IMG/VR virus record: IMGVR_UViG_3300024255_000019
DNA from: an uncultured virus (IMG/VR IMGVR_UViG_3300024255_000019)
Taxonomy: Duplodnaviria; Heunggongvirae; Uroviricota; Caudoviricetes
Reading direction: 5' to 3' (one strand)
Length of the DNA: 20,000 bases
Positions within the stretch are counted from its first letter, which is position 1. The number at the start of each line of letters is the position of its first letter. Below, piece by piece: positions 1,371 through 16,716 of this stretch. Position numbers and translations under genes: made by a program. The notes beneath the pieces are model-generated. The model saw only the letters and a program-made list of their open reading frames with translations, made no database searches and was not told the DNA's origin.

Positions 1371-2432
1371 ATGAAGATTGCGATCGTAACAGACTTACAC
1401 TTTGGCGCTCGAGGAGATAGCCGAGTATTCCATGAAGTACAAAGAAAGTTTTTCCAAGAGGTATTCTTTCCTTATGTAGACGAACAAGGTATCACAACTG
1501 TGTTTGACCTTGGTGACACCTTTGATAGAAGAAAGTATGTTAACTTCGTAAGTTTAGACAGGTGTCGTGAGTTCTTCTTTGATGAGCTTAACAAACGTAA
1601 AATTGATTTTCATTGCTTAATTGGTAATCACGATATCTATTATACCAATACAAATAGCATTAACAGCATGAATCTATTATTGCAAGACTATAAACACTTT
1701 AATCTATATGAAGATAAAGCTGAGCATATTGAGATTGGTTCAACAACATTCTTGATGCTACCTTGGATTAATAAAGAAAATGCAGAATATAATTACAAGA
1801 TGCTTGCCGAAAGTAAAGCTGATGTAGTTATGGGTCACCTTGAAGTCAAAGGATTTGAGATGTTAAAAGGTGTTCCATGTACTCACGGTACAGAAATGGA
1901 AGTATTTAAGAATTTTGAAGATGTTTACTCTGGTCATTTCCATCACCCATCTCGCTATGGAAATGTAGAATATCTCGGAGCACCCTATGAAATGACTTGG
2001 TCAGATTATAATGGTAGCCGTGGATTCCATGTCTTCGATACTGAAACAAGAGAGATGACCAAACACGAAAACCCTAACAAAGTCTTTTATAAAATAGATT
2101 ATGATGATTCAGATTGGACAGTGGATACTGTAGCCAATTTTGATGTTGACAAATATAAAGATACATTTGTAAAGGTAATTGTGAAAAACCGTACCAATGC
2201 TTATTTGTATGACCTCTTTATGAGTCGTATGAGTGAGTCTGGTGCAGTTGATGTCAAGGCAATTGATGATAATCTTAACCTTGAACATGTCGGAGTCGAT
2301 GAAGTACTTGACGAAACAAAAGACACTGGAGAAATCCTTCACCAGTATATAGATAGTATAGAGACCCAAGTCGATAAAGGAAGAGTAAAACAAGTTATCG
2401 ACGACTTATATCATGAGGCCCTTAGTTTATAA
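1371..2432 (+). CDS. gp47: Recombination endonuclease subunit gp47 (Mre11/SbcD-like)
   Basis: Metallophosphoesterase motifs DLH, GDTFD, GNHD and GHFH; directly upstream of gp46. Confidence 0.95.
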   Translation: MKIAIVTDLHFGARGDSRVFHEVQRKFFQEVFFPYVDEQGITTVFDLGDTFDRRKYVNFVSLDRCREFFFDELNKRKIDFHCLIGNHDIYYTNTNSINSMNLLLQDYKHFNLYEDKAEHIEIGSTTFLMLPWINKENAEYNYKMLAESKADVVMGHLEVKGFEMLKGVPCTHGTEMEVFKNFEDVYSGHFHHPSRYGNVEYLGAPYEMTWSDYNGSRGFHVFDTETREMTKHENPNKVFYKIDYDDSDWTVDTVANFDVDKYKDTFVKVIVKNRTNAYLYDLFMSRMSESGAVDVKAIDDNLNLEHVGVDEVLDETKDTGEILHQYIDSIETQVDKGRVKQVIDDLYHEALSL

Positions 2433-4144
2433 TGCGAATTCAATTTAAGAAAATTAAATACAAAAACATATTATCCACAGGAAACAACTTTACCACAATT
2501 GATTTTGATACCAAACCAACCACTCTAATCAGTGGTACTAACGGTTCGGGTAAGAGCACATTGCTTGATGCGATCGTGTTCGGTCTATACGGAAAGCCAT
2601 TTCGTAAAGTCAACAAAGGTCAGTTAATCAATACAATTAATAACAAAGAGTTGTTGGTTGAGATTTACTTTCAAGTTGGTGGTAAGAACTATATGGTTAA
2701 ACGAGGAATGAGACCCGTTGTATTTGAAATCTATCAAGATGGTCAACTCATTAACCAAGACGCAGCAAAGAAAGATTACCAAGAGTATCTAGAAACATCT
2801 ATTATTGGTATTAATTATAAATCTTTTAATCAGATTGTTGTACTTGGTTCAGCTACCTATGTTCCCTTTATGGAATTACATGCTGGAGCAAGAAGAGATA
2901 TCATTGAGGATTTACTAGACATTCAAGTATTCAGTACAATGGGATGGTTAGCTAAAGACCAAATGAAAGAAACAACTGATGACATCAATGATAATGCTTA
3001 TCAGATTGAGTTAACAGAATCTAAAATCGAAAGCGCTAAAGAGAATAACAACGAGATTCGTAAGATTAAAGAAGTTGAAGTATCTAAAATTAAAGAACGT
3101 ATGGGTGTAGAAATAGATGCTGTAGAATCTAAAAACGAAATCATCGATACACAAGATGAGATTATTAAAACTCTTTATGATGATATATCCGATAAAGCTG
3201 ACGAGAAAGAAAAATTCCAAGAGGCTACAGAAAAGAGAGCAGAACTTGAACGAATGCGTATTGCGTTTGATAAAGAGCTTAGTTTCTATGAGCACAATGA
3301 TGATTGCCCAACCTGTAAACAAGGTATTGAGCACGACTTTAAACAAGAACAAATTAATAATAAGAACGAACAAAAAGAAGATATCGAAAGAGGATTAGCT
3401 GCAACAGCAAAAACAATTAAGACACACCAAGACAGACTCAACTCAATATCTAAAGTCGAAACACAAATACAAAATGTTAACTTCAAAATCTCAGAGTATC
3501 GTGCTGAAATCAAAATGTCTAAGAATGCTTTAGTAGCTATGAAGAAAGAATTAGATAATGCACAAAGAGAAGTAGATGAAGTTGATGTTAGTAAACTTTT
3601 AAAATTAGAAAAAGACTTAGCAAAGAAACAAGAACAGAGAACAGAACTTCTTGATGAACGAGAAGTACTCAGTGTTGTTAGAACTATACTACAAGATGGT
3701 GGCATCAAAGCTCGTATTATCAGTCAGTATATTCCAGTTATGAATAAGCTTATAAACAAATATTTAGCTGCATTCGACCTCTTCGTTGACTTCCAACTTG
3801 ATGAGAACTTCAATGAGATTATCAAATCTCGTTTCAGAGATAAGTTCTCTTATGCTTCTTTTTCAGAAGGTGAGAAACTACGTATTACACTTGCGATCAT
3901 GCTAACATGGCGATCAGTTGCTAAATTACGTAACTCAGTATCTACAAATCTTCTTATACTTGATGAAACTCTAGATGGTGCACTTGATAGTGTAGGTATC
4001 GAAAGTTTAATTGAAACTCTGCACAGCTTGAATGCTGATGACAATGTATTCGTTATCTCACATAGAGGTGACCAATTCGCAGAGAAATTTGACACTAGTA
4101 TCACGTTCCAAAAGGTGAAAAACTTTAGTGAGATTGCTGCATAA
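2432..4144 (+). CDS. gp46: Recombination ATPase subunit gp46 (Rad50/SbcC-like)
   Basis: Walker A GTNGSGKST, coiled coil with CPTC zinc hook, signature FSEGE, Walker B LILDE, and H-loop ISH. Confidence 0.95.
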   Translation: MRIQFKKIKYKNILSTGNNFTTIDFDTKPTTLISGTNGSGKSTLLDAIVFGLYGKPFRKVNKGQLINTINNKELLVEIYFQVGGKNYMVKRGMRPVVFEIYQDGQLINQDAAKKDYQEYLETSIIGINYKSFNQIVVLGSATYVPFMELHAGARRDIIEDLLDIQVFSTMGWLAKDQMKETTDDINDNAYQIELTESKIESAKENNNEIRKIKEVEVSKIKERMGVEIDAVESKNEIIDTQDEIIKTLYDDISDKADEKEKFQEATEKRAELERMRIAFDKELSFYEHNDDCPTCKQGIEHDFKQEQINNKNEQKEDIERGLAATAKTIKTHQDRLNSISKVETQIQNVNFKISEYRAEIKMSKNALVAMKKELDNAQREVDEVDVSKLLKLEKDLAKKQEQRTELLDEREVLSVVRTILQDGGIKARIISQYIPVMNKLINKYLAAFDLFVDFQLDENFNEIIKSRFRDKFSYASFSEGEKLRITLAIMLTWRSVAKLRNSVSTNLLILDETLDGALDSVGIESLIETLHSLNADDNVFVISHRGDQFAEKFDTSITFQKVKNFSEIAA

Positions 4145-4149
4145 AGTAG

Positions 4150-4178
4150 TTGACAAATCTCTCAGAACGTGTTATAAT
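4150..4178 (+). promoter_or_regulatory. Sigma70-type early promoter of gp43
   Basis: TTGACA, 17-bp spacer, TATAAT with extended -10 TGn; intergenic. Confidence 0.85.
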
Positions 4179-4201
4179 AGTCCCTTACAATATGGAATAA
4201 T

Positions 4202-6748
4202 ATGAGTATGACTTCATTCTACACTTCAGTCGAGCGTTACGGCAATAATATCTTGCATCGTGGTTACGAAAACGGTAAACGTTTTTCATATCGCGTTCCT
4301 TATAAGCCAACTCTCTACTTACATACACCAAAATCCGGTGACGAGGGATATACTTCTCTTAAAGGTAATTTACCATTGAGTCCACAGCAGTTTGGCTCGA
4401 TGCGTGAATCCAAAGAATTTACTGAAGAATACAAAGGTGTTCACGGTATGAAAATCTTTGGTAACACAAACTATACTGCTCAATTTATCCAAGAAAATTA
4501 TCCCGACGATGTACGTTATGACATTAACCAAGTCAACATCGTCAGCTTCGACATCGAGGTCGATATCAGTGACGGGTATGCAAACACAGAATATGCTGAC
4601 AAAGAAATCACATCTATTGCATACAAATCTTCAAAATCAAATATCTATTATTTGCTTGGTCGTAAAGACTTTGACAAGACTCAAACTATCACTGGTATTG
4701 ACCCCGATAATATTATGTTCATCAAGTTTGACTCAGAGGTACAATTACTGAGACGCTTTGTTGAGATATGGGTATCTGATTATCCTGATGTTGTAACAGG
4801 TTGGAACGTCCAATACTTTGACATTCAGTATATTGTGACTCGTATTACAAATCTATGTGGTGAAGAGTTATCAAAACGACTCAGCCCTTGGAATAATATT
4901 CGTAAATATTCGCGAGAAGTATTTGGTAAGGTACAATCATCTTACACAATTTCAGGTGTTGCTGTTATTGACTATATGGATGCATTCAAAAAGTTTGGTT
5001 ACAAATACGGACCACAAGAATCTTACAGACTTGACCATATTGCAAATGTTGTACTCGGTGAAAAGAAACTTGACTATTCTGAATATGGTAACTTGACTGC
5101 TCTTTACGAACAGAATCCACAACTCTATCTCGACTATAACTTAAAAGATACACAGCTTATTGAAAGGCTCGAAGAGGAAACATCTCTACTTGCTCTTGTG
5201 ATGACTGTTGCTTATGGTGGTGGAGTTAACTATAACGATGCATTTGGTACTGTTGGTATCTGGGAATCTATTATCTATCGTAAACTTATGAAAGATAAAA
5301 TTGTTCCACCAATTAAAGAATCACCAGGTCAACGAGGTTCTGGTCTTGTAGGTGGTTATGTTAAAGACCCTAAACCTGCAATGTACCCTTGGGTAGTATC
5401 ATTTGACTTGAACTCACTATATCCTCACTTGATGTTACAATACAATATGTCACCTGAAACTTATTCGCATGACGACCGTGAGTATGTAACTCAAGACATG
5501 GTACTCAAAGGTGAGTTTAAAAATACAAACAAAGATTATTCAGTTGCAGCCAATGGTGCATGTTTCAGTAATAAAAAGATGGGTATCATTCCAGAGATTA
5601 TTGATGAGTACTATAATAACCGTGCCAAAATCAAACAACAGATGCTTGCAGTTGAACAACAACTTGAAGTTGAAACTGACCCAGCTGAAAAGAAAAAGTT
5701 AAAGACAGAAGCTAACCAATTACATAATTCTCAGATGTCCATAAAGATTTCTATGAACTCACTTTATGGTGCTACAGCAAACATATATTTCTTATACTAT
5801 ATTAATGATATGGCTGAAGCTATTACAACATCTGGCCAGCTCAGTATTCGATATGCAGAAAAATCTGTAAACGATTATCTTAACAAAGTACTTAAAACAA
5901 CTAACAAAGACTATGTTATCTATATTGATACTGACTCAGTCTATGTTGACTTTGCTTCACTCATTGAACAAGTATATGGTACGACAGACATTGATCGCAA
6001 GACTGGAGAAGAGTTCTTAGATAAAGTCTGTAAATCAAAAATTGAAGAAATCATTGAAGCAGGTTACGAAACTCTTGCATCTGATATGGGTGCCTATCGT
6101 AATGCGATGGTAATGAAAAGAGAGAAAATCAATGACCGTGCAATCTTCATTGCAAAGAAACGATACATACTGAATACTCTCAACTCAGAAGGTGTTCACT
6201 ATGAAAAACCAAAAATCTCTGTTACAGGACTTGAAAGTGTTCGTTCATCTACTCCAGAGATATGTCGTGACAAGATGCGAGAAATCTTCAACGTAATTCT
6301 AAACGAAGGTGAAGAGCAAACTCAAAAATTCATTAGTGACTTTAAACAAGAATTCTTTAAACTACCTGCACAGGTTGTTGCTCGTAACTCAGGTACTGAT
6401 AACATTGAGAAGTATATGACCAAGGGTGGTTACAAGAAAGGCTGTCCTATACATGTTCGTGGTTGTATCTTGTTTAACCATTATCTTAAAGAGAAAGGTC
6501 TCAGTAAACGATACGAGTCCGTTCAGTCAGGCGATAAGATTAAGTTCGTCTATCTCAGAGTACCAAACCCACTTCGTGAAAATGTAATATCATTTCCAAA
6601 TGTTCTACCAAAAGAACTTGGACTCGAGCAATATATAGATTACGAAACACAATTTAACAAAGTTTTTCTCAGTCCCATAGAGCATATCATTGAAGCTCTC
6701 GGCTGGACTTCAGAAAAACAAGATAACCTTGACGACTTTTTTAGTTGA
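4202..6748 (+). CDS. gp43: Family B DNA polymerase gp43
   Basis: Exonuclease motifs FDIE, GWNVQYFD and YNLKD. Polymerase motifs SFDLNSLYP, KISMNSLYG and YIDTDS. C-terminal clamp-binding-like LDDFF. No intein or intron visible. Confidence 0.97.
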   Translation: MSMTSFYTSVERYGNNILHRGYENGKRFSYRVPYKPTLYLHTPKSGDEGYTSLKGNLPLSPQQFGSMRESKEFTEEYKGVHGMKIFGNTNYTAQFIQENYPDDVRYDINQVNIVSFDIEVDISDGYANTEYADKEITSIAYKSSKSNIYYLLGRKDFDKTQTITGIDPDNIMFIKFDSEVQLLRRFVEIWVSDYPDVVTGWNVQYFDIQYIVTRITNLCGEELSKRLSPWNNIRKYSREVFGKVQSSYTISGVAVIDYMDAFKKFGYKYGPQESYRLDHIANVVLGEKKLDYSEYGNLTALYEQNPQLYLDYNLKDTQLIERLEEETSLLALVMTVAYGGGVNYNDAFGTVGIWESIIYRKLMKDKIVPPIKESPGQRGSGLVGGYVKDPKPAMYPWVVSFDLNSLYPHLMLQYNMSPETYSHDDREYVTQDMVLKGEFKNTNKDYSVAANGACFSNKKMGIIPEIIDEYYNNRAKIKQQMLAVEQQLEVETDPAEKKKLKTEANQLHNSQMSIKISMNSLYGATANIYFLYYINDMAEAITTSGQLSIRYAEKSVNDYLNKVLKTTNKDYVIYIDTDSVYVDFASLIEQVYGTTDIDRKTGEEFLDKVCKSKIEEIIEAGYETLASDMGAYRNAMVMKREKINDRAIFIAKKRYILNTLNSEGVHYEKPKISVTGLESVRSSTPEICRDKMREIFNVILNEGEEQTQKFISDFKQEFFKLPAQVVARNSGTDNIEKYMTKGGYKKGCPIHVRGCILFNHYLKEKGLSKRYESVQSGDKIKFVYLRVPNPLRENVISFPNVLPKELGLEQYIDYETQFNKVFLSPIEHIIEALGWTSEKQDNLDDFFS

Positions 6749-6773
6749 CAAATACAAACAAACGTGTTATAAT
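6745..6773 (+). promoter_or_regulatory. Sigma70-type early promoter
   Basis: TTGACA (overlapping the gp43 TGA stop), 17-bp spacer, TG-T-TATAAT. Confidence 0.85.
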
Positions 6774-6796
6774 ATAACACAATTATGGAGAACATT

Positions 6797-7084
6797 ATGA
6801 AAGATGTACAATTAGTAAGACTAGTAACAGGTGAAGAAGTTGTTGCAGAAGTTAGTTACGATAAGGGATTTTATACCCTAACAGACGCAATTCTGCTAGT
6901 CCCAGCAGGAGAAGGTAAAATTGGAATGGTTCCATTTGTACCTTATGCAAAACGTGAACCAGTCGTTATCGGCGAAGCTCATGTTATGTTCCAATTAACT
7001 CCTGCAGATGAGTTAAAAAGACAAGTGATTGAAGCTACCACAGGTATTTTGATGCCAGGTAACGACGGACTTAAATTAGTATAA
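6797..7084 (+). CDS. Phage Sm-like domain protein
   Basis: Start chosen at ATG 6797 behind a GGAG SD. N-terminus VQLVRLVTGEEVVAEV and MVPFVPY are typical of T4-like phage Sm-like proteins. Confidence 0.55.
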   Translation: MKDVQLVRLVTGEEVVAEVSYDKGFYTLTDAILLVPAGEGKIGMVPFVPYAKREPVVIGEAHVMFQLTPADELKRQVIEATTGILMPGNDGLKLV

Positions 7085-7093
7085 GGAGATAAA

Positions 7094-7321
7094 ATGGTAA
7101 AAATATATGGCAAACCATCATGTGGTTATTGTGTAATGGCTGAATCGTTGTGTAAACAAAAGAGCGTTCCATATCAATATCTCAGTTTAGATAAAGATTA
7201 TACAACTGAAGAATTTTTTGAAACTTTCCCTGGTGCAAGAACCTTCCCACAAATTCAAATCGAAGGTGAAAACATCGGTGGATATACTGAATTAGAAAAG
7301 AGGTTAAAGTTAAATACATGA
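7094..7321 (+). CDS. Glutaredoxin (NrdC-like)
   Basis: CGYC active site, TFPQI cis-Pro motif, IGGY; strong AAGGAG SD. Confidence 0.92.
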   Translation: MVKIYGKPSCGYCVMAESLCKQKSVPYQYLSLDKDYTTEEFFETFPGARTFPQIQIEGENIGGYTELEKRLKLNT

Positions 7322-7641
7322 AATATAAAATCTTAACAGTAGCAACTTTATTTGCTATCGGTCTTACAGCACAAGCAGAAGAAAGGCTTGATAGTTATAA
7401 AGAAATCAGACCAGTGTGGAAAACCTGTGCAGCATGTCATGGCCCACAAGGTCAAGGTGGCATCGGTCCAAAACTCGCAGGACAAAGTACTGATGACATT
7501 ATCAGTAAGCTTTTAAAATATAAAGCTGGTGAAACAGTTGGACCACAATCTATGTTGATGTGGGGAACAGCTAAAGGTTTAACTGATGGACAAATTGGTA
7601 CCATCAGCGTATACATTACACAAGGATTTCCAAATGAGTAA
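7318..7641 (+). CDS. Exported monoheme class I cytochrome c (c553-like)
   Basis: Sec signal peptide MKYKILTVATLFAIGLTAQA, heme motif CAACH, GPKLAGQ, and a candidate distal Met in QSMLM. Confidence 0.88.
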   Translation: MKYKILTVATLFAIGLTAQAEERLDSYKEIRPVWKTCAACHGPQGQGGIGPKLAGQSTDDIISKLLKYKAGETVGPQSMLMWGTAKGLTDGQIGTISVYITQGFPNE

Positions 7642-8044
7642 AAATTGGGTAGAAGATATCCATGTCATGCAAGGTAAATATCTTACAAGACAATGGGTAG
7701 AAAAGAATCCAGAGAAACTACAAAAGTTTCTTGAGTTTCGTGTTGACTTTCTTAATGAAGAGTTAGAAGAAACTCGTAAAGCTGTATCTGAATATGATGC
7801 AGAAGAGATTGTAGATGGATTAATTGACCTATGTGTTGTAGCTATTGGTACACTTGATGCATTTGGAGTTGACCCTTATAAAGCTTGGGACGAAGTACTT
7901 AAAGCGAACATGAACAAAGAGGTAGGTGAAAAGCCATCTAGGCCAAATCCACTCGGAGTACCAGACTTAATTAAACCAGATACATGGTACCCACCTTCGC
8001 ATGAAGGTAACCATGGTAAATTTGCAAACTTAAAAGGAGAATAA
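7634..8044 (+). CDS. MazG-like / PRA-PH all-alpha NTP pyrophosphohydrolase
   Basis: Start chosen at ATG 7634 (MSKNW). Acidic motifs EELEE and EIVDGLIDL, plus ANMNK and DLIKP-x-W. Confidence 0.75.
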   Translation: MSKNWVEDIHVMQGKYLTRQWVEKNPEKLQKFLEFRVDFLNEELEETRKAVSEYDAEEIVDGLIDLCVVAIGTLDAFGVDPYKAWDEVLKANMNKEVGEKPSRPNPLGVPDLIKPDTWYPPSHEGNHGKFANLKGE

Positions 8045-8046
8045 AA

Positions 8047-8289
8047 ATGGCAATGAAAGAACTATCAATGAAAGAACTATTAGTGAATGCACTCATTTCT
8101 AAATATGAAGCAGCGATCGCAGAACACACAGCAAACATAGCAGTAATGCTTGAGCAAGGTGTTGGAGTAGCTGAACATCCAGGTATTGTTGAAACATTGG
8201 ATTTAGAAATGGCTAAACTTGCTGAAGCTGAAGATAAACTCAGTACAGCAAAACAATTTTGTGCACCAATTCCACCTAAAGTTGTATAA
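8047..8289 (+). CDS. Conserved hypothetical protein of marine T4-like phages
   Basis: AAGGAG SD. The helical HTANIAV...GVAEHPGIVE pattern recalls a small protein common in marine myoviruses. Confidence 0.6.
   Translation: MAMKELSMKELLVNALISKYEAAIAEHTANIAVMLEQGVGVAEHPGIVETLDLEMAKLAEAEDKLSTAKQFCAPIPPKVV
8051..8080 (+). repeat. Perfect 15-bp tandem duplication (CAATGAAAGAACTAT x2)
   Basis: 8051-8065 equals 8066-8080; in frame, giving MKELS/MKELL. Confidence 0.9.
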
Positions 8290-8291
8290 AA

Positions 8292-8335
8292 TACAAATAA
8301 TGGTTGACAAACACACATTAGTGTGTTATAATAAC
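8292..8335 (+). repeat. 44-bp promoter-containing direct repeat, copy 1 (copy 2 at 14654-14697)
   Basis: 40 of 44 positions identical, including a 19-bp exact block TACAAATAATGGTTGACAA. Confidence 0.9.
8304..8332 (+). promoter_or_regulatory. Sigma70-type early promoter with palindromic spacer
   Basis: TTGACA, 17-bp spacer, TATAAT. The inverted repeat AACACAC-ATTA-GTGTGTT spans 8310-8327. Confidence 0.85.
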
Positions 8336-8705: not shown

Positions 8706-8960
8706 ATGAGTAACATTATTATACCTTCAAGCGAAGAAGATAAAAAACGCATACGTGGAGCATTTGAAGAAATCAGTAATTCATTTGTACGAATTGAAGC
8801 AGAAAGAGCATTTCAAAAAGATGCTATTGATGCACTAGCTGATGACGTTGATATCCCTAAAGGAACACTTCGTAAAGCTGCAAGACTATTTCACAAACAA
8901 AATATCAGCTCAGTCGTAACTGAAGTTGAAGACATGGAAGCATTGCTGGAGAGTATTTAA
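8706..8960 (+). CDS. dsbA: T4 DsbA-like dsDNA-binding protein
   Basis: 84 aa, helical; IPKGTLRKAARLFHKQN parallels the T4 DsbA central motif. Confidence 0.7.
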   Translation: MSNIIIPSSEEDKKRIRGAFEEISNSFVRIEAERAFQKDAIDALADDVDIPKGTLRKAARLFHKQNISSVVTEVEDMEALLESI

Positions 8961-9622
8961 TGTTAACAGTTGGTAACATAAGACAACTAATCATTGATAA
9001 GTACCTTGACGAAGATTTTGTAATCGACAGAACAGGTGCTAAAACAATTGAAATCATTGGTGCAACATTTGTTGCTGACCAAGATTATGTTATTCGTAAA
9101 CCTGCTTATGCTTATATCGAGCGTGAATTAGAGTGGTACAAATCTCAATCACTTAATGTAAACGATATCCCAGGAGAAACTCCTCAGATATGGAAAGACA
9201 TTGCATCGACAGAGGGCCAGATTAATTCTAATTACGGCTGGTGCATTTATTCTGAAGATAATGGTAACCAATATAAACATGTATTGCGTGAACTGAAGAA
9301 CAATCCAAATTCCCGTAGAGCCACTATGTTATACAATAGGCCTTCAATGCATTTGGATTACAATCGTGATGGTATGTCAGATTTTATGTGTACATATGCA
9401 AATACTTTTTATATTCGCGATGGCCAACTTGAATCTCATTACTTGATGCGTTCTAACGATGCAGTCTTTGGTTACAATAACGATGTTGCATGGGCAAAAC
9501 ATGTTCAACAAGAATTGGCGAATGACTTAAATGTTCAAGTCGGCAATATCGTTTGGACAGCATCCAACTTTCATGTTTACGAAAGACATTTTAATTTCAT
9601 TGAGGAATTAATGAATGGCTGA
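8960..9622 (+). CDS. gp42: dCMP hydroxymethylase (T4 gp42-like, thymidylate synthase superfamily)
   Basis: Colinear with T4 gp42 as I recall it: DRTGAKTIEIIGA, RELEWY, INSNYGW, DGMSDFMCT (catalytic Cys), RSNDAVFGYNND (final Asp is the cytosine-specificity residue, Asn in ThyA), HVY. Confidence 0.88.
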   Translation: MLTVGNIRQLIIDKYLDEDFVIDRTGAKTIEIIGATFVADQDYVIRKPAYAYIERELEWYKSQSLNVNDIPGETPQIWKDIASTEGQINSNYGWCIYSEDNGNQYKHVLRELKNNPNSRRATMLYNRPSMHLDYNRDGMSDFMCTYANTFYIRDGQLESHYLMRSNDAVFGYNNDVAWAKHVQQELANDLNVQVGNIVWTASNFHVYERHFNFIEELMNG

Positions 9623-10067
9623 TAAATGGGATATTAGATTTTTAAGATTAGCAAAAGAAGTTTCAACTTGGAGCAAAGACCCATCTAAACAAATAGGTGC
9701 TGTCTATGTTGTTAATCGAAGAATTGTATCTACAGGTTATAATGGCTTTCCACGAGGTATCGACGATACAGAAGAGCGATACAATAACAGAGAGCTTAAG
9801 TATGAGTTAGTATCTCATGCAGAAATGAATGGCATATACAATGCTACAGCTCACGGTCAATCTCTTAATGGTGCAACTGCATATGTTTGGGGATTACCTA
9901 TCTGCCACGAATGTGCAAAAGGTATCATTCAAGTTGGTTGTTTAAGAGCTGTTATGGCAACAGAAGATGTACCAGATAATTGGAAAAGCTCCTTTGCTAA
10001 AACATCTGACATGTTTAAAGAAGCTGGAATTGATTGGAAAATCATTGAAGCCAGCAAACTACTTTGA
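9615..10067 (+). CDS. cd: dCMP deaminase
   Basis: SKDPS...GYNGFPRG, HAEMN and PICHEC zinc ligands. Confidence 0.92.
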   Translation: MADKWDIRFLRLAKEVSTWSKDPSKQIGAVYVVNRRIVSTGYNGFPRGIDDTEERYNNRELKYELVSHAEMNGIYNATAHGQSLNGATAYVWGLPICHECAKGIIQVGCLRAVMATEDVPDNWKSSFAKTSDMFKEAGIDWKIIEASKLL

Positions 10068-10086
10068 AAATTTTCATAAATAATTG

Positions 10087-10115
10087 TGTACATTCTAATA
10101 AAAACATGTTATAAT
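10087..10115 (+). promoter_or_regulatory. Sigma70-type promoter with variant -35
   Basis: TGTACA, 17-bp spacer, TG-T-TATAAT; intergenic, upstream of the glycosyltransferase/methyltransferase genes. Confidence 0.7.
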
Positions 10116-10138
10116 ATACAATTAAAAGGTAATATATT

Positions 10139-10822
10139 ATGAGTAAAACTGAAAAGAACCTTGTGTTCCAAGTCCAAATAAAGCCCAATGGCGGTCGCTC
10201 AGAAGGCAAGAAAAAATTCCATTACGCCCAAGACTTGTATGATTACTCTACTTCAAGAGCAAAAGCTTATGCTGAAAAGAATGGAGCAGAGTATTTTCGT
10301 TTAACAACTGACGAATGGTTAGGTGGACAATATTCACCTGCTTATCATAAGCTTTATATTTACAAACTATTCGAGCAAGGGTACGATAAAATTATGTATT
10401 TGGATAGTGATGCTATTATTACTAAAATTTGTCCTAACTTATTTGAGAACGATGAATTTTCAGCAATGATGGATTACGGCTATAATACAGAAGCTGCTGC
10501 AGCAAAACAAAAAAGATTTAACGATCGCTTAGGAATACCAGATGAGCATATATACTTTTGCTCAGGTACAGTTTTATTTGATAGAAAATATTACGAAGCG
10601 ACTAAAGACCACTGGCAAGAGCAATTAAATGTTCCACAACCACAGCATGACCAATCACTATTTAATGTTTTAGTTGGTAACCATTATGGTAAATACACAA
10701 ACATAAGTAATGAGTGGGGTCACTGGGGTAAAAAAGGTAAGTACATTCAGCATGTAACTACTGCAGGTGGAACTAAAACTTTTGACGAACAAAAATTTTT
10801 GGACTGGGAATCCAAATTATAG
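10139..10822 (+). CDS. GT8-like glycosyltransferase (GT-A fold)
   Basis: YDKIMYLDSD (DxD), YFCSGTVL, DQSLFN and a late His motif (IQH), as in family GT8. Confidence 0.75.
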   Translation: MSKTEKNLVFQVQIKPNGGRSEGKKKFHYAQDLYDYSTSRAKAYAEKNGAEYFRLTTDEWLGGQYSPAYHKLYIYKLFEQGYDKIMYLDSDAIITKICPNLFENDEFSAMMDYGYNTEAAAAKQKRFNDRLGIPDEHIYFCSGTVLFDRKYYEATKDHWQEQLNVPQPQHDQSLFNVLVGNHYGKYTNISNEWGHWGKKGKYIQHVTTAGGTKTFDEQKFLDWESKL

Positions 10823-10837
10823 AATGGAGAATTATTG

Positions 10838-11962
10838 ATGAAAATTTTAATTACAGGGTTTAACAAAGAGCAATGTACCAAAGATTACTATCTTGGTAAA
10901 GAGCTTAAGATTCTAAACTCACATTACAGTTTAATTCGTTGCCTCGAAGATATGGGCCATGAGATTGAACAACGAACAATTACTATAGGCGAAGACCTTA
11001 GCGGATATGATAAAGTTATCATTTATCTTTCATCTGTTAAATCTTTTGCTCACCATGCTTTCGATGCACTATATGCACTGACTGCAAGACCTGATGCAAT
11101 TTTAGCTAACGATGATTGGCAAGTGCGTGAAGTATTTACCTCATTTAAATTGTATGAAGAAAATCTTATTGCTCATAAAGAATCGGGCAAACCATTTTAC
11201 GATTATGGAACAAATACATACCTAGCAAATCTATATAAAGGTGATACACCACTTGAAGATATGCATAAACATATTGATACATTCATAGATGCATGTCATA
11301 TAGTTAACGAAAAACTGAATACATTAATACTATGTACATTTGCAGGTGGTGAAAACGAGTTATTTAAGATTGACTACAAAGGTGAGATTATTAATTATAA
11401 TCCAAACCCTTACAATCTTAATCGTAGACCCGAAAACAATTATGGTGAGGATGTTGGATTACTTGGATTCTTTGATGATGAACCAGTTATTCTCTCACCA
11501 GAAGAAAAGAAATTAAGATGGATATTCTCATCTATTGTACAAAGTAAAACAATGGGTTGGTTCAACAAACAGAAACCAACTTGGGATGTATTAAACTTTG
11601 GCCCAAGACGAGAAACAAAACAAACTAAAGGCATTGAAACATATAGAGTGAAAGAGCCTGAGATGTGCAAAATCTATAATGAGAACTGGGGTTGTATGAT
11701 GCCAGAATACTATCATGCAGGTTCTGGTTGGTGGCGTTCTCGAGTTCAACAAGTTGCTGATGTAGAGTCGGTACTTGTATGTTCAGATGCAGAAGGTAAA
11801 ATTTACGGGGAGGCATACGTTGGAAATACTATTGAAAGTGTTGAGAATATGTCTATTGAAGAATTAACAAAACTGGGTAAGGCTCAAAAAGAATGTCTTT
11901 ATGATAACCACCCATTAAATAAGGCGACACAAAGAAGTGAGCTTTTAGGAGTAGTAGAATGA
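10838..11962 (+). CDS. Putative DNA-base glycosyltransferase (GT-B-like)
   Basis: ATG 10838 behind a GGAGA SD. Rossmann-like start MKILITG...LEDMGHEIE, with DDWQ and YHAGSGWWRSR. Recalls uncharacterised or sugar-transferring proteins of T4-like phages with modified cytosine; context downstream of gp42. The fold call is inference. Confidence 0.5.
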   Translation: MKILITGFNKEQCTKDYYLGKELKILNSHYSLIRCLEDMGHEIEQRTITIGEDLSGYDKVIIYLSSVKSFAHHAFDALYALTARPDAILANDDWQVREVFTSFKLYEENLIAHKESGKPFYDYGTNTYLANLYKGDTPLEDMHKHIDTFIDACHIVNEKLNTLILCTFAGGENELFKIDYKGEIINYNPNPYNLNRRPENNYGEDVGLLGFFDDEPVILSPEEKKLRWIFSSIVQSKTMGWFNKQKPTWDVLNFGPRRETKQTKGIETYRVKEPEMCKIYNENWGCMMPEYYHAGSGWWRSRVQQVADVESVLVCSDAEGKIYGEAYVGNTIESVENMSIEELTKLGKAQKECLYDNHPLNKATQRSELLGVVE

Positions 11963-13191
11963 AACATGCAGGAATTATCCCGCTGATTGGAGGGGAGATA
12001 TTAGCATCTGACGAAGCTTACGGAACAAAGCCTGAGTATTTAATGACTTACGGCGGATTCGAAGGTAACGAAAAACATTTGCTTAATTATTATAAAGAAC
12101 AAGGACATGATTTACCTTATCATGTTATCGATGGTGATAATGCACCTAAGCGATATAATAAAGTTGATGTGGTATCATCGGTATGTCCCTGTGCAGGATT
12201 AAGTAGTTATCATAATTCTTATGGTGAAGAAAATCCAAATAACCAATGGCTTGTAAAATCTACAAAGTTTGTATTAAATGAAATTGCTCCTAAAGTTCTA
12301 TGGGGCGAGAATGCTCCTGCTCTTGCAACTAATGTTGGCGCATTTATGAAAAAGAAACTTATGGAAATTGGTAAAGAAGCTGGTTATAATATGACCATCT
12401 ATACTACTAAAACATTGTTACATGGTAATCCTCAAGTTCGTAGACGTTCATTCTATTTCTTTTGGAAAAAAGATGTATTTAATAATAAGGTACCAACGTT
12501 CGAGTATTTTGATAAACCAATGCCGACCATTACTGACTTGTTAATAGAAACAAAATCTAATTTCCAAACAGAAACAATTAATAAGCGTATTCCATCTCAA
12601 GATGACCCATACTACAAATACTTATTAGAAGAAATTAAAGGTGGAATGAGTCATACTGATTTTGCAGCAGAGTTAAGAGAAGACAAAACATTTACTAGAC
12701 CATCATATAATATTGAAAGTGAACTTATACATCACCACGGTAAAAACTATGCTGAAATATCTGAATACATGAGAGGGCAAGGACTTGACAGAGAAGCCGA
12801 TAAATGTATGAGAAGATATGAGAAATTAAAAGCTGGGGGTGGAGTAATGTGGAGAGGAACATTGATTCCTGTTCGACACATTGGAGCCTTCGTAGTGCAT
12901 ATGCCACATGTTCTCACGCATCCTGTTGAAGATAGATATATAAACATAAGGGAAGCAATGAACATTATGGGCCTTCCAGAAGATTATGAACTACTTGACC
13001 CAGAAAAAAGCATCAACCACATCTGCCAAAATGTACCTTACAAGACTGCAAGGGATATGGCTAATCAGGTTAAGAAAGCAATAGAGAAAAAACTACCTAT
13101 GGAAGATGCTACCTATATGTTACAAGACAATCTATCACAGCGTATTCGTGATAGCCACTCATCTATTGATATAACAGAGTTTATGGCATGA
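11959..13191 (+). CDS. C5-cytosine DNA methyltransferase homologue with atypical motif I
   Basis: Motif IV CPCAGLS, VI GENAP, VIII GNPQVRRR, IX HPVEDRYINIREAMNIMGLP and X CQNVP. Motif I reads IPLIGG instead of FxGxGG. Confidence 0.8.
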   Translation: MKHAGIIPLIGGEILASDEAYGTKPEYLMTYGGFEGNEKHLLNYYKEQGHDLPYHVIDGDNAPKRYNKVDVVSSVCPCAGLSSYHNSYGEENPNNQWLVKSTKFVLNEIAPKVLWGENAPALATNVGAFMKKKLMEIGKEAGYNMTIYTTKTLLHGNPQVRRRSFYFFWKKDVFNNKVPTFEYFDKPMPTITDLLIETKSNFQTETINKRIPSQDDPYYKYLLEEIKGGMSHTDFAAELREDKTFTRPSYNIESELIHHHGKNYAEISEYMRGQGLDREADKCMRRYEKLKAGGGVMWRGTLIPVRHIGAFVVHMPHVLTHPVEDRYINIREAMNIMGLPEDYELLDPEKSINHICQNVPYKTARDMANQVKKAIEKKLPMEDATYMLQDNLSQRIRDSHSSIDITEFMA

Positions 13192-13814
13192 AGAAACATT
13201 TAGTACTTGACTTCGAAACAATGGGGACTGAGCCTACAACATGCGCAGTCGTTGATTGTTCAGTAATGATTTTTGATTGGGATAATTTTACAACCAATCC
13301 TTATACTCCTGCGGACATTAACAAGACTCGTAGATTTAAACTCAATGTTTCAGAACAGGTCAAGGACTATGGTTACAACATCGAAGAGTCCGTTATTAAG
13401 TTTTGGCAAGAACAATCTAAAGAAGTTCGTGATAAAATTAAACCATCACAGCAAGACCTTACAGTAAAAGAGTTCGTATCCAACTTTCACAATTTAGTTG
13501 TTGATGAAAATATTGGTCATTGGTGGACTCGTGGAAATGCTTTCGACCCAATAATTATTACAAGACTATTTGATAGTCAAGGCCGTAAAGCACATCTCTA
13601 TAACTATTTGAAGTACTATATGGTACGTGATATGAGAACTTATATTGATGCTAAGTTTAACTTTGAAAATAAACAAAACGGATTCTGTCCCATTGCCGAT
13701 TCAGAAAAATGGGATAAAATATTTAAGGCGCATGATAGCTCCTGGGATGTCTTGGCTGATGTACTCAGACTACAAGCGATCGTAAGAGCAGAAAATGATT
13801 TGGAGCAAGTATGA
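13188..13814 (+). CDS. dexA: DexA-like 3'-5' exonuclease (DEDDh)
   Basis: LDFETMG, WTRGNAFD, RDMRT and AHDSSWD. Confidence 0.85.
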   Translation: MKKHLVLDFETMGTEPTTCAVVDCSVMIFDWDNFTTNPYTPADINKTRRFKLNVSEQVKDYGYNIEESVIKFWQEQSKEVRDKIKPSQQDLTVKEFVSNFHNLVVDENIGHWWTRGNAFDPIIITRLFDSQGRKAHLYNYLKYYMVRDMRTYIDAKFNFENKQNGFCPIADSEKWDKIFKAHDSSWDVLADVLRLQAIVRAENDLEQV

Positions 13815-14662
13815 AAATTGAAATTAAAACAGAAGAACTAAGAAAGTATAATATCTTCGTTGGCACACCGATGTATGGTGGTCAAGCGACAGGCCTTTAC
13901 ACGAAGGCTACCAACGATCTAAGCATGTTATGTGCTACTCATGGTATCCCATTAAAATACTATTTCCTTTTCAATGAGAGCCTTGTACAACGTGCTAGGA
14001 ACTATATAGTAGACGAATTCATGCGTTCAGATTGTAGTCACTTATTATTCATTGATGCAGACATTGCATTTAACCCTCGTGATGCTTTAGCATTACTTGG
14101 TGTACATTTACAAGACCCAGAAGAATATCCTATCGTAACTGGACCTTATCCTAAGAAAACAATTGCATGGGAAAAAGTAGCTAAGGCAGCTCAAATGGGC
14201 AAGAGTGATGAGAATCCATTTGAACTAGAAAGATTTACATCTGACTTCGTATTCAACCCAGTTAAAGGTATGCAACAATTTAAATTGAGTGAACCTGTTG
14301 AAGTACAAGAAGCAGGAACTGGATTTATGTTAATTAGCAGAGAAGCATTAGAGAAATATCGTGATGCATATCCTGAGTTATCATATCTACCAGACCATGT
14401 CAGAACAGAACAATTTGATGGCACAAGAGAGATTACAGCTTTCTTCGATTGTGTTATCGACCCAGATTCTAAGCGTTACTTATCAGAAGATTATTTCTTC
14501 TGTAAGCAAGCCCGTAAAGCGGGTCTGAAAGTTTGGATGTGTCCTTGGATGCAACTAAACCATACAGGAACATATATCTTTAAAGGTGGTATGGGTTCCA
14601 TTGCAGAGCTTGGAGTAACAGCAACCGCTGATTCTACCTCTTCCAAAAAGAGTTACAAATAA
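13811..14662 (+). CDS. GT-A fold (GT2-like) glycosyltransferase-like protein
   Basis: TPMYGG, NESLVQRARN, FIDAD (DxD), GTGFMLI and YLSEDYFFC. Confidence 0.65.
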   Translation: MKIEIKTEELRKYNIFVGTPMYGGQATGLYTKATNDLSMLCATHGIPLKYYFLFNESLVQRARNYIVDEFMRSDCSHLLFIDADIAFNPRDALALLGVHLQDPEEYPIVTGPYPKKTIAWEKVAKAAQMGKSDENPFELERFTSDFVFNPVKGMQQFKLSEPVEVQEAGTGFMLISREALEKYRDAYPELSYLPDHVRTEQFDGTREITAFFDCVIDPDSKRYLSEDYFFCKQARKAGLKVWMCPWMQLNHTGTYIFKGGMGSIAELGVTATADSTSSKKSYK

Positions 14663-14697
14663 TGGTTGACAATCGCACACTAATGTGTTATAATAAC
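14654..14697 (+). repeat. 44-bp promoter-containing direct repeat, copy 2
   Basis: Matches 8292-8335 at 40 of 44 positions; includes the last codons TAC AAA TAA of the upstream gene. Confidence 0.9.
14666..14694 (+). promoter_or_regulatory. Sigma70-type early promoter of gp45
   Basis: TTGACA, 17-bp spacer, TG-T-TATAAT. Confidence 0.85.
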
Positions 14698-14725
14698 CTT
14701 TCATAAACTAGGAGAAATTTATATT

Positions 14726-15388
14726 ATGAAATTTTCTAACGAAACCTTGAGTGTCCTTAAGAGCTTTACCGCAATCAACAAATCTATTCAGATGAAACCC
14801 GGTAATGTTCTCAAGACAATTACTCCAGAAAAAACGCTTATTGCAATTGCAGAAATCCCAGATGAAATACCAAGCGAAGCTTGCGTATATGATTTATCTA
14901 GATTCCTGTCAATTCTAGGCTTATATAATGACCCAGACGTTGAGTTTGGCGATAAGTATTTTACTATCTCAGAAGGTAAGAGGCGAACCAAGTATGTCTA
15001 CGCAGACATCTCTATGATTCATACTCCGCCTGAAAAAGATATAAATATACCATCTGAAGACGTCGTAGTAAGTGTAACGGAAAGTGACCTTTCCGCAGTG
15101 CTTAAAGCGGCAGGAGTTCTTCAGTTCACAGAGATTGCATTTGTAGGTGAAAACGGCAAATGTACTCTGAAAGCGATCGACAGTGCTAACGACAACACAG
15201 ATGACTTTGGTGTTGAAATTGGTGAAACTGACGATGAGTTTAAAGTCATCATTAAAACTGATAACTTGAAGCTAATGCCGATGGATTACGAAGTTACCAT
15301 TTGTTCAAAAGGTATCTCAGAATTCAAAGGGGATAACGTCACTTACTTTGTGGCAATAGATTCAAAGTCAACATATAATAAAGGATAG
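14726..15388 (+). CDS. gp45: Sliding clamp gp45
   Basis: MKFSNETLSVLKSFTAINKSI and YDLSRFL match gp45; size and position before gp44/gp62 fit. Confidence 0.93.
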   Translation: MKFSNETLSVLKSFTAINKSIQMKPGNVLKTITPEKTLIAIAEIPDEIPSEACVYDLSRFLSILGLYNDPDVEFGDKYFTISEGKRRTKYVYADISMIHTPPEKDINIPSEDVVVSVTESDLSAVLKAAGVLQFTEIAFVGENGKCTLKAIDSANDNTDDFGVEIGETDDEFKVIIKTDNLKLMPMDYEVTICSKGISEFKGDNVTYFVAIDSKSTYNKG

Positions 15389-15396
15389 GTGAAACT

Positions 15397-15684
15397 ATGA
15401 ATGACGCAGTACAAGGCAACTTCGGTGGCCAGCAACAGCAACAACAAGAAGAAGTCGTAATCAATATGAACGACCTCTCAACAGTCCTGCAACTAATTGA
15501 CGTAGTGTCAACAAGAGGCGGGTTTCAAGGTAATGAACTAGCCGGTGTAGGAATGTTAAGGAATAAGCTTGAAGCTTATCTAAGACAACACATGCCACAA
15601 CAAGAAGCGCCAAAAGGTGCGGACGGTGAAGTGGATGTAGCTATACCAGCAACTGGTGAATTAGCTGAAAAGTTGGTTGACTAA
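15397..15684 (+). CDS. Conserved hypothetical protein (Gln-rich ends)
   Basis: AGGTGA SD; helical core NDLSTVLQLIDVVSTRGGFQGNELAGVG. Confidence 0.6.
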   Translation: MNDAVQGNFGGQQQQQQEEVVINMNDLSTVLQLIDVVSTRGGFQGNELAGVGMLRNKLEAYLRQHMPQQEAPKGADGEVDVAIPATGELAEKLVD

Positions 15685-15708
15685 AACCAACACTCTTTCT
15701 CGAGAACA

Positions 15709-15747
15709 GGGGATACAGCGAATGCTTATCCCCGCCCTCAATTTTTT
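15709..15747 (+). terminator. GC-rich hairpin, possible weak terminator or processing/stability element
   Basis: GGGGATA-C-AGC-GAAT-GCT-TATCCCC stem (15709-15733); the T6 tract starts 8 nt downstream. Confidence 0.45.
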
Positions 15748-15768
15748 ATATTATGATATCGGTGACCT

Positions 15769-16716
15769 ATGCAACACAAAACAAATGAAGTACTCTGGGT
15801 AGAAAAGTATCGTCCACAATCTATAGACGACACAATCTTACCAGACAAAATGAAAAACACGTTTCGTAAATTTGTAAACGACGAAAACGTACCAAACTTA
15901 TTACTAACCGGTGGACCAGGAGTAGGTAAAACTACGATCGCTAAAGCCATGCTCGATGAAATGGGCTGTGACTATATCGTTAAAAACGGTTCTCTAAACG
16001 TGAATATCGACACTCTTCGATATGACATCTCAACTTATGCAAGTGCTGTTTCCCTTAGTGGTGGCAGAAAATATGTAATCTTTGACGAAGCAGATTATCT
16101 CAGTGCAGCTAATGTACAACCTGCTCTTCGTAATTTCATTGAAGAATATTCATCGAACTGTGGATTTATATTTACTTGTAATTTTAAGAACAGAATTATT
16201 GCTCCACTCCGTTCAAGGTTATCTGAAGTAGATTTCTCTATTGAACAGACAGAGCGTCCAGCTCTTGCTATGCAATTCTTTAAACGAGTTATTAATATTC
16301 TTGAGAATGAGAATGTTAACTATGATAAAGCAGTTGTAGCAAAAGTAATTGAAAAACACTTCCCAGACTTTCGTAGAGTATTAACTGAACTACAATCTTA
16401 TGCAGCTTCAGGTAAAATTGACGAAGGTATATTTGTAAATCTAAAACAAGAAAGTATTGATGAACTATTTAGTTTACTCAAAGCGAAAGACTTTACAAAT
16501 ATGCGTAAATGGGTAGCAAGAAACTCAGACCAAGACATGAATGAAATGTTTCGTAGAATCTATGATGCATCATCTGAACGTGTAGAATTTAAAACACTAC
16601 CAGGGTTTGTAGTTACTATTGCCGACTATATGTATAAGAGTAACTTTGTAGCTGACCAAGAGATTAACATGGTTGCTTTTCTAACAGAAGTTATGATTGA
16701 ATCTGAGTATCTCTAA
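15769..16716 (+). CDS. gp44: Clamp loader large subunit gp44 (AAA+)
   Basis: LWVEKYRP, Walker A GGPGVGKTT, Walker B IFDEAD, LRSR and FPDFRR. Confidence 0.96.
   Translation: MQHKTNEVLWVEKYRPQSIDDTILPDKMKNTFRKFVNDENVPNLLLTGGPGVGKTTIAKAMLDEMGCDYIVKNGSLNVNIDTLRYDISTYASAVSLSGGRKYVIFDEADYLSAANVQPALRNFIEEYSSNCGFIFTCNFKNRIIAPLRSRLSEVDFSIEQTERPALAMQFFKRVINILENENVNYDKAVVAKVIEKHFPDFRRVLTELQSYAASGKIDEGIFVNLKQESIDELFSLLKAKDFTNMRKWVARNSDQDMNEMFRRIYDASSERVEFKTLPGFVVTIADYMYKSNFVADQEINMVAFLTEVMIESEYL

Follow-up and report, generated by a model that had tools for sequence, protein, structure and literature searches.

Flank-dependent avoidance of GATC in an uncultured virus of the class Caudoviricetes and in related phages

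We analyzed the distribution of the tetranucleotide GATC in a 20,000-nucleotide stretch of DNA (hereafter, the window) from an uncultured virus of the class Caudoviricetes (IMG/VR record IMGVR_UViG_3300024255_000019) and in related phage sequences. The window has lost most of its GATC sites. The tolerated context was R-C (R, purine) directly 5' of GATC, with GCGATC far ahead of ACGATC and ACGATC far ahead of TCGATC and CCGATC, and tolerance was best where the flank occurs on both strands. As an explanation, we favor a host-side nuclease attacking GATC combined with flank-specific cytosine modification by a phage gene cassette, a reading to which we assign a probability of roughly 45%.

GATC depletion and the tolerated context

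The window contained 11 GATC sites, compared with 64.0 (standard deviation, sd, 7.2) in 200 dinucleotide-preserving shuffles and 48.1 (sd 5.1, minimum 35) under a codon-preserving null, in which synonymous codons were permuted within each open reading frame (ORF) over 1,000 shuffles. Of the 16 four-base palindromes, GATC was by far the most strongly depleted (Markov observed/expected ratio, O/E, 0.16). DGATCH was absent against a codon-preserving expectation of 33.8-34.6 (minimum 19); depletion was thus upheld under the codon-aware null, and A-, G- or T-flanked GATC was not at normal frequency. Before C, Asp was encoded by GAC 43 times and by GAT 3 times; before A, G and T, the counts were 97, 100 and 60 for GAT and 44, 36 and 39 for GAC. 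A preliminary description of this DNA had listed 11 GATC sites, put the expectation at about 60 and remarked on the preference for GAC before C; exactly those 11 sites were recovered, the estimate agrees with the composition-based value, and the codon remark holds. The GATC pattern is confirmed as real and highly non-random.

A 5' C was present at 10 of the 11 sites and a 3' G at 8, every site having one or the other. Seven were CGATCG, ten contained GCGATC or GATCGC, and one was the full palindrome GCGATCGC; the flanks given in the preliminary description were the same on recounting. The ten sites of the GCGATC/GATCGC type compare with 2.4-2.6 expected (maximum 7), a count reached by none of the 1,000 shuffles, and the seven CGATCG sites with 2.1, reached by 2 of 1,000. 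GCGATC-type sites are above expectation, more than merely spared. CG-flanked GATC lacking GCG occurred once against 11.5 expected, and TCGATC once against 5.6, with TCG being the commonest NCG trinucleotide (38%; GCG, 16%). The base at position -2 counts, and the permitted context is narrower than an overlap with CpG. G was strongly preferred at +1 (7 of 10 GCGATC sites), and double-CG sites made up 7 of the 11 survivors, compared with about 15% expected among CG-flanked sites. All six GCG-Ile codon pairs in the window used ATC, with GCG representing just 29 of 360 Ala codons.

The same context recurred in contigs of the window's clade. All 14 GATC sites of G001 (87 expected) and all 16 of G006 (102 expected) were CG-flanked, as were 19 of 22 in the 64-kb contig G002 (206 expected), four of which were the full GCGATCGC. 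The three exceptions in G002 were all AAGATC (positions 16548, 23611 and 39467, in L081/L082), two of them in accessory genes (CsgF and a CHASE2 adenylate cyclase), and these may be recent acquisitions not yet purged. Grouped by 0, 1, 2, 3 or 4 flank matches to GC-GATC-GC, observed/expected counts were 0/25.3, 1/17.8, 3/4.2, 6/1.16 and 1/0.07 in the window and 2/56.5, 3/39.4, 6/11.4, 1/1.18 and 4/0.17 in an independent 45 kb of G002. O/E climbed steeply with flank matches in both, the excess of permitted sites being overstated in purged genomes because the shuffle null inherits their purge-skewed codon usage. Outside the region corresponding to the window, G002 had 8 sites of the 6-mer class against 5.0, an excess that taken by itself was not significant (21 of 200 shuffles reached 8).

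Three sites were common to the window and G002 in the aligned region, and all new sites were CG-flanked. GATC sites turn over quickly, and newcomers always lie in the permitted context. This turnover rules out the surviving sites as positionally conserved functional elements and, since few sites are shared and the new ones are all CG-flanked, indicates a context-dependent filter acting on sites as they arise.

We then compared further relatives, sampled as 80 polymerase-centred loci together with loci centred on the C5 cytosine methyltransferase (C5-MTase) and on the GT8-family glycosyltransferase described below. The sister lineage G003 contained a single GATC in 107,852 bp against 353 expected; as in restriction-site avoidance, the counts of both G003 and the window lie far below the codon-aware expectation. 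Five loci (L115-L117, L129 and L136) had no GATC, and L012, L013 and L119 had one AGATC-type site apiece. The survivors of L053/L054 were exclusively AGATC (16/16), at inherited positions. Across L053, L054, L044, L012, L013 and L119, GATC was depleted and the survivors were AGATC only, mostly AAGATCY; CG-flanked GATC in L053 numbered 0 against 9.2 expected, the opposite of the rule in the window. We also considered AAGATCTT as an independent recurrent element and rejected it, as the AGATC sites of L053-L056 and L044 lie at shared orthologous positions and so are inherited. Most remaining lineages had normal GATC. Overall, GATC purging is widespread among these marine phages.

GCGATC was also in excess in some relatives that are not purged. 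The observed counts were 8 against 2.7 in L108, 9 against 1.8 in L109 and 19 against 9.4 in L045, each reached by 0 of 150 shuffles; L108 and L109 represent one lineage, probably with shared sites. L024 had 10 against 4.6 (1 of 150 shuffles), and no excess was found in L123, L132, L017, L049 or L063. The one-base neighbours of the motif showed no enrichment.

Cultured phages of streamlined marine bacteria followed rules of their own. The whole record of Pelagibacter phage HTVC008M (L174+L175+L177) contained 83 GATC against 379 expected, all 83 within GGATC. Sites with 0, 1 and 2 G flanks gave observed/expected counts of 0/191.8, 55/115 and 28/11.8; GGATCC was thus enriched, while GGGATC was absent (9.3 expected). 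No recognisable DNA-modification gene was found in HTVC008M by annotation and tblastn. In methylophage Melnitz, the first 50 kb contained 4 GATC against 176. The podophages HTVC011P and HTVC019P, which are unrelated phages of the same Pelagibacter strain (HTCC1062), had 0/80.5 and 0/95.5, and podophage HTVC010P had normal GATC. The HTVC008M rule shows that flank-specific exemption is a general, lineage-specific phenomenon.

Other palindromes were lost as well. In HTVC008M, TCGA numbered 2 against 441 and CGCG 1 against 112; in HTVC010P, HTVC011P and HTVC019P (L198, L199 and L200), CCGG, GGCC and CGCG were absent and GCGC numbered 0-1, with TCGA also absent from HTVC011P. The window clade and G003, which bear a hydroxymethylase gene, were strongly depleted in GATC only (TCGA 59/65 in the window and 362/357 in G003), the result to be expected if hypermodified cytosine protected C-centred sites and left GATC exposed. 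The available text of PMC9516812 reports depletion of GANTC in about half of 33 pelagiphages. We found no literature report of GATC avoidance or flank exemption in pelagiphages, the supplements of PMC7029224, PMC9516812 and PMC8919816 lying outside this search, and the exemption of GATC by its flanks, as seen here among phages of streamlined marine bacteria, is apparently undescribed so far. As in restriction-site avoidance, a 4-bp palindrome has been lost almost completely in some lineages and not in others, by way of synonymous changes, and unrelated phages of one host have lost it alike. The present pattern differs in the clean flank exemption, the permitted base being (G)C, G or A depending on the lineage, and in that no cognate nuclease family was seen in the presumed host order.

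Predicted modification genes and the variable cassette

The window encodes a T4-like replication module (gp47/46, gp43, gp45, gp44/62 and RegA), and further genes include those for MazG, peptide deformylase, Hsp20, cytochrome c and peroxiredoxin. Surviving sites and genes with a predicted bearing on DNA modification or nucleotide metabolism are listed in Table 1.

Table 1. Surviving GATC sites and selected genes of the window
Feature	Position	Strand	Sequence or match	Remarks
Surviving GATC	1380..1387		GCGATCGT	codons GCG-ATC
Surviving GATC	2570..2577		GCGATCGT	
Surviving GATC	3893..3900		GCGATCAT	single GCG flank
Surviving GATC	3910..3917		GCGATCAG	single GCG flank; frame CGA-TCA
Surviving GATC	5991..5998		TTGATCGC	GCGATC on minus strand; frame GAT-CGC; common to G002
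Surviving GATC	8113..8120		GCGATCGC	full palindrome
Surviving GATC	10521..10528		ACGATCGC	
Surviving GATC	13776..13783		GCGATCGT	
Surviving GATC	13914..13921		ACGATCTA	sole site without GCGATC; kept in G001, G006 and G002
Surviving GATC	15173..15180		GCGATCGA	
Surviving GATC	15934..15941		ACGATCGC	common to G002
MazG-type nucleotide pyrophosphohydrolase	7586..8044	+	PF01503, E 1.6e-11	
dCMP hydroxymethylase, T4 gp42 orthologue	8960..9622	+	1b49, E 2.4e-74	hm-dCMP synthesis
dCMP deaminase	9615..10067	+		
GT8-family (GT-A) glycosyltransferase	10139..10822	+	PF01501, E 7.5e-8	
GT-B glycosyltransferase	10835..11962	+	fold match to T4 beta-glucosyltransferase	candidate DNA hmC glycosyltransferase
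C5 cytosine DNA methyltransferase	11959..13191	+	PF00145, E 4e-18	
Conserved ORF, possible third glycosyltransferase	13811..14662	+	weak GT-A matches; PF13506, E 0.0011 (below cut-off)	
dUTPase-family protein	17815..18324	+	at dut cut-offs	plain dUTPase or gp56-like dCTPase/dUTPase

The hydroxymethylase ORF was 54-59% identical to gp42 of T-even and Acinetobacter T4-like phages. It keeps the catalytic Cys (DFMCT) and the cytosine-specifying Asp (NND, aligned to RND of T4), and its match to thymidylate synthases (E 1e-14) was far weaker than that to 1b49; the 1b49 match and the cytosine-specifying Asp rule out a thymidylate synthase. For the GT-B ORF, no Pfam family was found. We searched its AF2 model (pLDDT 89.3, pTM 0.88) against 350,542 PDB chains using Foldseek, and ranks 1-6 were all T4 beta-glucosyltransferase (E 1.2e-6 to 3.2e-5, TM 0.44-0.57), followed by T4 alpha-glucosyltransferase. 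At the level of the modelled fold, this ORF is a candidate 5-hydroxymethylcytosine (hmC) glycosyltransferase. Motifs I, IV (PC), VI (ENA), VIII (QVRRR), IX and X were recognised by eye in the C5-MTase, whose homologues vary most at residues ~181-300. A sequence search of the PDB with this protein gave no match, and assigning its specificity by homology was abandoned, the best 120 homologues listed bearing no or generic names and the nearest cultured ones being 28-32% identical.

The possible third glycosyltransferase (283 aa, phrog_1574) was found in most lineages whatever their GATC state. The dUTPase-family protein scored 104.8 against a cut-off of 102.55 and 103.3 against one of 103, and MazG has a possible role in shaping the dNTP pool. 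No Dam gene was found, and no Vsr-type nuclease in five contigs. Neither the 29 window ORFs (three of them scanned to E 10) nor the 67 ORFs of G002 had a Pfam match to a TET/5mYOX/JBP-type dioxygenase, and a TET/5mYOX partner for the C5-MTase was therefore dropped. Judging from this gene complement, the virion DNA of the clade very probably carries glycosylated hmC.

The clade resembles T-even phages, which glucosylate hmC, in having a gp42 orthologue with both key residues, a GT-B protein with the BGT/AGT fold, a dCMP deaminase and a dUTPase-family gene. It differs in its additional GT8, a variable glycosyltransferase cassette and a C5-MTase, with no Dam found; to our knowledge, T4 has neither GT8 nor such a cassette or C5-MTase, and we know of no need for T4 to purge GATC. 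A second point of comparison is the phage C5-MT/5mYOX/glycosyltransferase system, reportedly described by Burke and co-workers in 2021 as a post-replicative, sequence-specific hypermodification of cytosine. The likeness lies in a C5-MTase adjoining glycosyltransferases and in the idea of a context-confined modification; the difference lies in the lack of a detected TET/5mYOX, as hmC in the clade would arise by a pre-replicative, ThyA-like route. A GpC preference, reported for most phage hypermodification methyltransferases in the available part of a preprint (Pyle et al. 2023), would mark C(-1) of GCGATC.

The stretch from the dCMP deaminase to the C5-MTase is a glycosyltransferase cassette that differs by lineage. 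It holds GT8 and GT-B in the window clade and another GT4-like gene in G003; in L108 and L119/L012 it holds GT-B and a GT4-type gene, the latter sharing 83% identity between these two lineages. Where the window has GT8, sisters carry unrelated GT4-type glycosyltransferases (L119:4555-5640, L108:1572-2657 and L023:13805-15037), as in a swappable cassette. GT8 was restricted to the clade that retains GCGATC (14/14 GT8 loci). The overlapping loci of L119/L012, which lack GT8, cover 26 kb with three GATC sites, none of them GCGATC, and the C5-MTase and GT-B of this lineage stand at a similar divergence from those of the window (79-85% and 81-87% identity).

Agent of the purge and competing explanations

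The preliminary description had attributed the purge to a host defence, and an agent outside the phage was supported. L108 and L119 share a cassette (C5-MTase 85% and GT-B 87% identical) but differ in purge state, L108 having normal GATC and L119 being purged, so the purge is imposed from outside the cassette. Homologues of the C5-MTase were present in lineages of every GATC state. Of the purged genomes, G003 has the hydroxymethylase, and it was not found in HTVC008M or Melnitz; of those with normal GATC, G004 has it, and it was not found in G005. Its presence does not track the purge. The pattern follows host exposure over phylogeny or gene content in all three comparisons: L108 and L119, the unrelated podophages of HTCC1062, which are both purged, and the hydroxymethylase.

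We also searched for a nuclease. The DpnII/MboI and MutH/Sau3AI families were not found in G002, G003, G005, HTVC008M or Melnitz. A PD-(D/E)XK gene beside phoH in G002 matches PF12705, which we take to be a Cas4/RecB-like family. On the host side, a 1.41-Mb contig (G041; 29.4% GC in the 20 kb sampled, with a proteorhodopsin gene) is probably SAR11-like, and its own GATC was normal (O/E 1.05 in the same sample). Among 187 genomes of its order, the search of the DpnII and MutH/Sau3AI families gave 0 and 1 matches, respectively, with one strong and 16 weak partial matches to Dam. These counts agree with PMC7029224 and PMC9516812, in which SAR11 is reported to be almost without restriction-modification (R-M).

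Under the reading we favor, a host-side activity would attack GATC and select against the site, which would be removed through synonymous changes (ATC to ATT, GAT-C to GAC-C and GCG-ATC to GCA-ATC). In the window clade only, GATC would be tolerated where the adjoining 5' C follows a purine (G being much preferred over A), with sites flanked on both strands tolerated best and an optimum at GCGATCGC. Compared with cytosines elsewhere, the one in R-C-G would most likely carry a larger or otherwise different group; this could be a sugar that GT8, found only in this clade, attaches depending on context, together with the BGT-like GT-B. Steric hindrance by the adduct would keep the nuclease off, each flank protecting one strand, so that double-flanked sites would be safe, single-flanked sites half-tolerated and the rest lost; the over-representation of double-CG survivors fits such strand-by-strand protection. 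GT8 may be the best candidate for the context-dependent step, and the context-dependent glucosylation by T-even enzymes offers a precedent. The chemical steps of this scheme, namely the modification, its context dependence, the block and the host nuclease as agent, are proposed to account for what was observed, namely the site counts, their distribution across relatives, the identified genes and the modelled fold.

Several points weigh against this reading. HTVC008M has an equally clean rule and no recognisable modification gene, which favors flank specificity on the host side. No known GATC nuclease family was detected in the phages and almost none in the 187 SAR11-like genomes, and the host of the clade, to whose putative order this search is tied, is a presumed one. 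The association of GT8 with GCGATC retention comes from one clade and may reflect a single evolutionary event, and the GT8 genes of pelagimyophages have been assigned to host lipopolysaccharide (LPS) in the available text of Zaragoza-Solas et al. (PMC7029224). In Flodman et al. 2020 (PMC7653180), T4 DNA with glucosyl-hmC is resistant to 214 of 227 type II enzymes. T4gt DNA, with hmC only, is scored there as resistant to DpnII, MboI, Sau3AI and PvuI; no known GATC enzyme was shown in that study to cut hmC DNA, T4 Dam confounding the resistance to DpnII and MboI. Unless substitution is incomplete, the postulated nuclease must then be able to act on GATC whose own C is modified. Finally, a shield leaves the 2-5 fold excess of GCGATC in non-purged relatives unexplained, and the idea of shielded survivors, as the preliminary description had it, does not suffice as a full account. 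That description had the outline of a purge with a context-specific shield, which is partly supported: a flank-specific shield agrees with the dose-response, the motif specificity and the context-bound turnover, but the proposed protection by any CpG overlap fails, since R-C is needed on the 5' side. It was likewise too specific in naming the methyltransferase, and it missed the separate enrichment signal.

The flank rule might instead be intrinsic to the nuclease, with R-C-flanked sites left uncut or only nicked and variants in other hosts sparing GGATC or AGATC. We consider this rather unlikely, although the HTVC008M rule fits it directly, as do the L053/L054 sites, whose locus lacks the hydroxymethylase/C5-MTase block, and a purge state that follows something outside the cassette. 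With a simple enzyme requiring both half-sites, single- and double-flanked sites should survive equally well, but their O/E values were about 10-fold apart in the window (4/12.0 for single, 7/2.0 for double) and about 5-fold apart in HTVC008M; a difference of this kind could also arise if the two strands were nicked independently. At least three enzyme variants would be needed, each excluding a different flank base and with a preference at position -2, and the putative host order showed no known GATC nuclease family. We know of no type II GATC enzyme with such a flank rule.

A shield of 5-methylcytosine, placed by the phage C5-MTase on residual unsubstituted C in an RCG, GpC or CGATCG-type motif, was the proposal of the preliminary description and appears improbable. 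The enzyme has all catalytic motifs, lies within the cassette and differs most between lineages in its variable region. GCGATC is in excess in the non-purged lineages with the closest C5-MTase (L108/L109, 79%; L045, 67%) and not in those with other distant homologues or none (L123, L132, L017, L049 and L063), but the excess extends to L024, whose C5-MTase is about 50% identical. The GpC formed by G(-2)C(-1) lies directly against GATC, which agrees with the GpC preference noted above, and HIP1, an octamer of cyanobacterial genomes, is linked to a CGATCG methyltransferase in the available text of Elhai 2015 (PMC4390886). However, a gp42-type hydroxymethylase would fill C5 and leave the C5-MTase without substrate if substitution is complete. 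L119/L012 have a closely related C5-MTase and no GCGATC at their three sites, homologues of about 50% identity occur both in the totally purged G003 and in normal lineages, and a pure GpC rule leaves the strong preference for G at +1 unaccounted for.

Positive maintenance of GCGATC(GC), by a HIP1-like ratchet (methylation-linked biased repair) or as a site for a phage protein, is less probable again as the explanation, and it may coexist with the others. It would account for the enrichment in non-purged L108, L109 and L045, for the four full 8-mers against 0.17 in the independent DNA of G002, for the unenriched one-base neighbours and for the exclusive use of ATC after GCG. The window clade resembles HIP1-bearing genomes in an apparent over-representation of the same octamer, GCGATCGC, and of its CGATCG core, in a frame bias to GCG-ATC and in the company of a C5-MTase that may recognise a CGATCG-type motif. 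It differs in several respects: the frequency in the phage clade is orders of magnitude lower, the octamer (4 against 0.17-0.18 in G002, 1 against 0.07 in the window) amounting to just about 1 per 16-20 kb and the 6-mer to about 0.2-0.5 per kb; and the phage is of a non-cyanobacterial type, with other GATC purged rather than Dam-methylated. Neither Dam nor, in the five contigs, a Vsr-type nuclease was found. Sites turn over without positional conservation, L119/L012 and G003 have purged the motif, and the excess in purged genomes is partly inflated by the skewed null. A cyanobacterial genome or host, as HIP1 would imply, is contradicted by the lack of psbA and by the pelagimyophage-type genes. 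HIP1 in cyanobacteria is linked to the CGATCG methyltransferase also in Xu et al. 2018 (PMC5861425), and marine picocyanobacteria show no HIP1 excess according to the available text of Elhai 2015.

Chloroviruses use a GATC enzyme against host or competitor DNA, and a similar phage-encoded nuclease, with the phage genome avoiding the site as self-immunity, would fit the reported near-absence of R-M in SAR11 and the normal GATC of G041, but it is very improbable, as searches for the DpnII and MutH/Sau3AI families gave nothing in G002, G003, G005 or the complete genomes of HTVC008M and Melnitz, three different phage families would each need such an enzyme, and the PD-(D/E)XK gene of G002 matches PF12705.

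Phage clade, presumed host and wider implications

The source is an uncultured marine, pelagimyophage-like phage of T4 type. G002 encodes CsgF, CsgG, ribosomal protein S21, hemC, hemE and PhoH, and the curli proteins CsgF/CsgG, S21 and peptide deformylase of the pelagimyophage gene set described by Zaragoza-Solas et al. 2020 (PMC7029224, available text) are all present in the window or G002. Among cultured phages, six of seven records with CsgG homologues came from HTVC008M or Melnitz. The clade shares CsgF/CsgG, S21, peptide deformylase, Hsp20, PhoH and GATC avoidance with pelagimyophages (the HTVC008M group) and Melnitz. It diverges from pelagimyophages in sequence (CsgG 47-52%, gp23 63%), its DNA polymerase has its best matches in cyanomyoviruses (44-45%), and it has a hydroxymethylase, which HTVC008M and Melnitz lack. 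Near-identical DNA was not found in the phage collection.

A cyanophage on a HIP1-rich host was rejected: psbA was absent from the five contigs (up to 170 kb), the genes are pelagimyophage-like, and no HIP1 excess is reported for marine picocyanobacteria in the available text of PMC4390886. Host searches with peroxiredoxin against genome contigs returned mixed Alpha- and Gammaproteobacteria (53-62%), those with S21 against 401 class genomes gave matches of at most 45%, and both were set aside as uninformative. The clade also carries heme-pathway genes, for porphobilinogen deaminase and uroporphyrinogen decarboxylase, together with a CHASE2 adenylate/guanylate cyclase (L081:11588-12406, L082:658-1590 and L082:1586-3655).

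Tentatively, streamlined hosts of the SAR11/OM43 type might harbour a potent attack directed at GATC and other palindromes, with each pelagiphage lineage purging the sites and modifying its DNA in a flank-specific manner. We consider this generalization less likely than not. If true, the surviving-site logo (GCGATC in the window clade, WGGATC in HTVC008M and AAGATC elsewhere) would be a readout of the target of each hypermodification enzyme, and for the window clade it would point to context-dependent glycosylation of hmC in R-C-G. The pattern in the window clade predicts, from sequence alone, where a phage DNA-hypermodification system would act, namely at R-C-G adjoining GATC. A predicted T4-type kit for hmC glycosylation in pelagimyophage-like phages bears on the published assignment of their glycosyltransferases, notably GT8, to LPS modification of the host. 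Taken with this pattern, the palindrome losses of Pelagibacter phages argue for a strong sequence-specific defence at the DNA level in the most abundant marine bacteria, and such a defence without recognised R-M genes points to undiscovered nucleases. Flank-resolved counts (codon-aware NNGATCNN O/E) could serve as a cheap marker of host or defence exposure in uncultured phages.

Some additional genes were observed. Melnitz, an OM43 methylophage (L176), has a C5-MTase annotated as HhaI-like at 4010-5227, directly after the DNA polymerase, and this protein had no match to the C5-MTase of the window at E 1e-5. Within the replication module of the window, positions 7318-7641 encode a 107-aa cytochrome c (PF00034/PF13442) adjoining glutaredoxin and MazG, an unusual auxiliary gene. 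A 141-aa ORF at 336-761 showed weak matches to NMN/pantetheine adenylyltransferase-like proteins.

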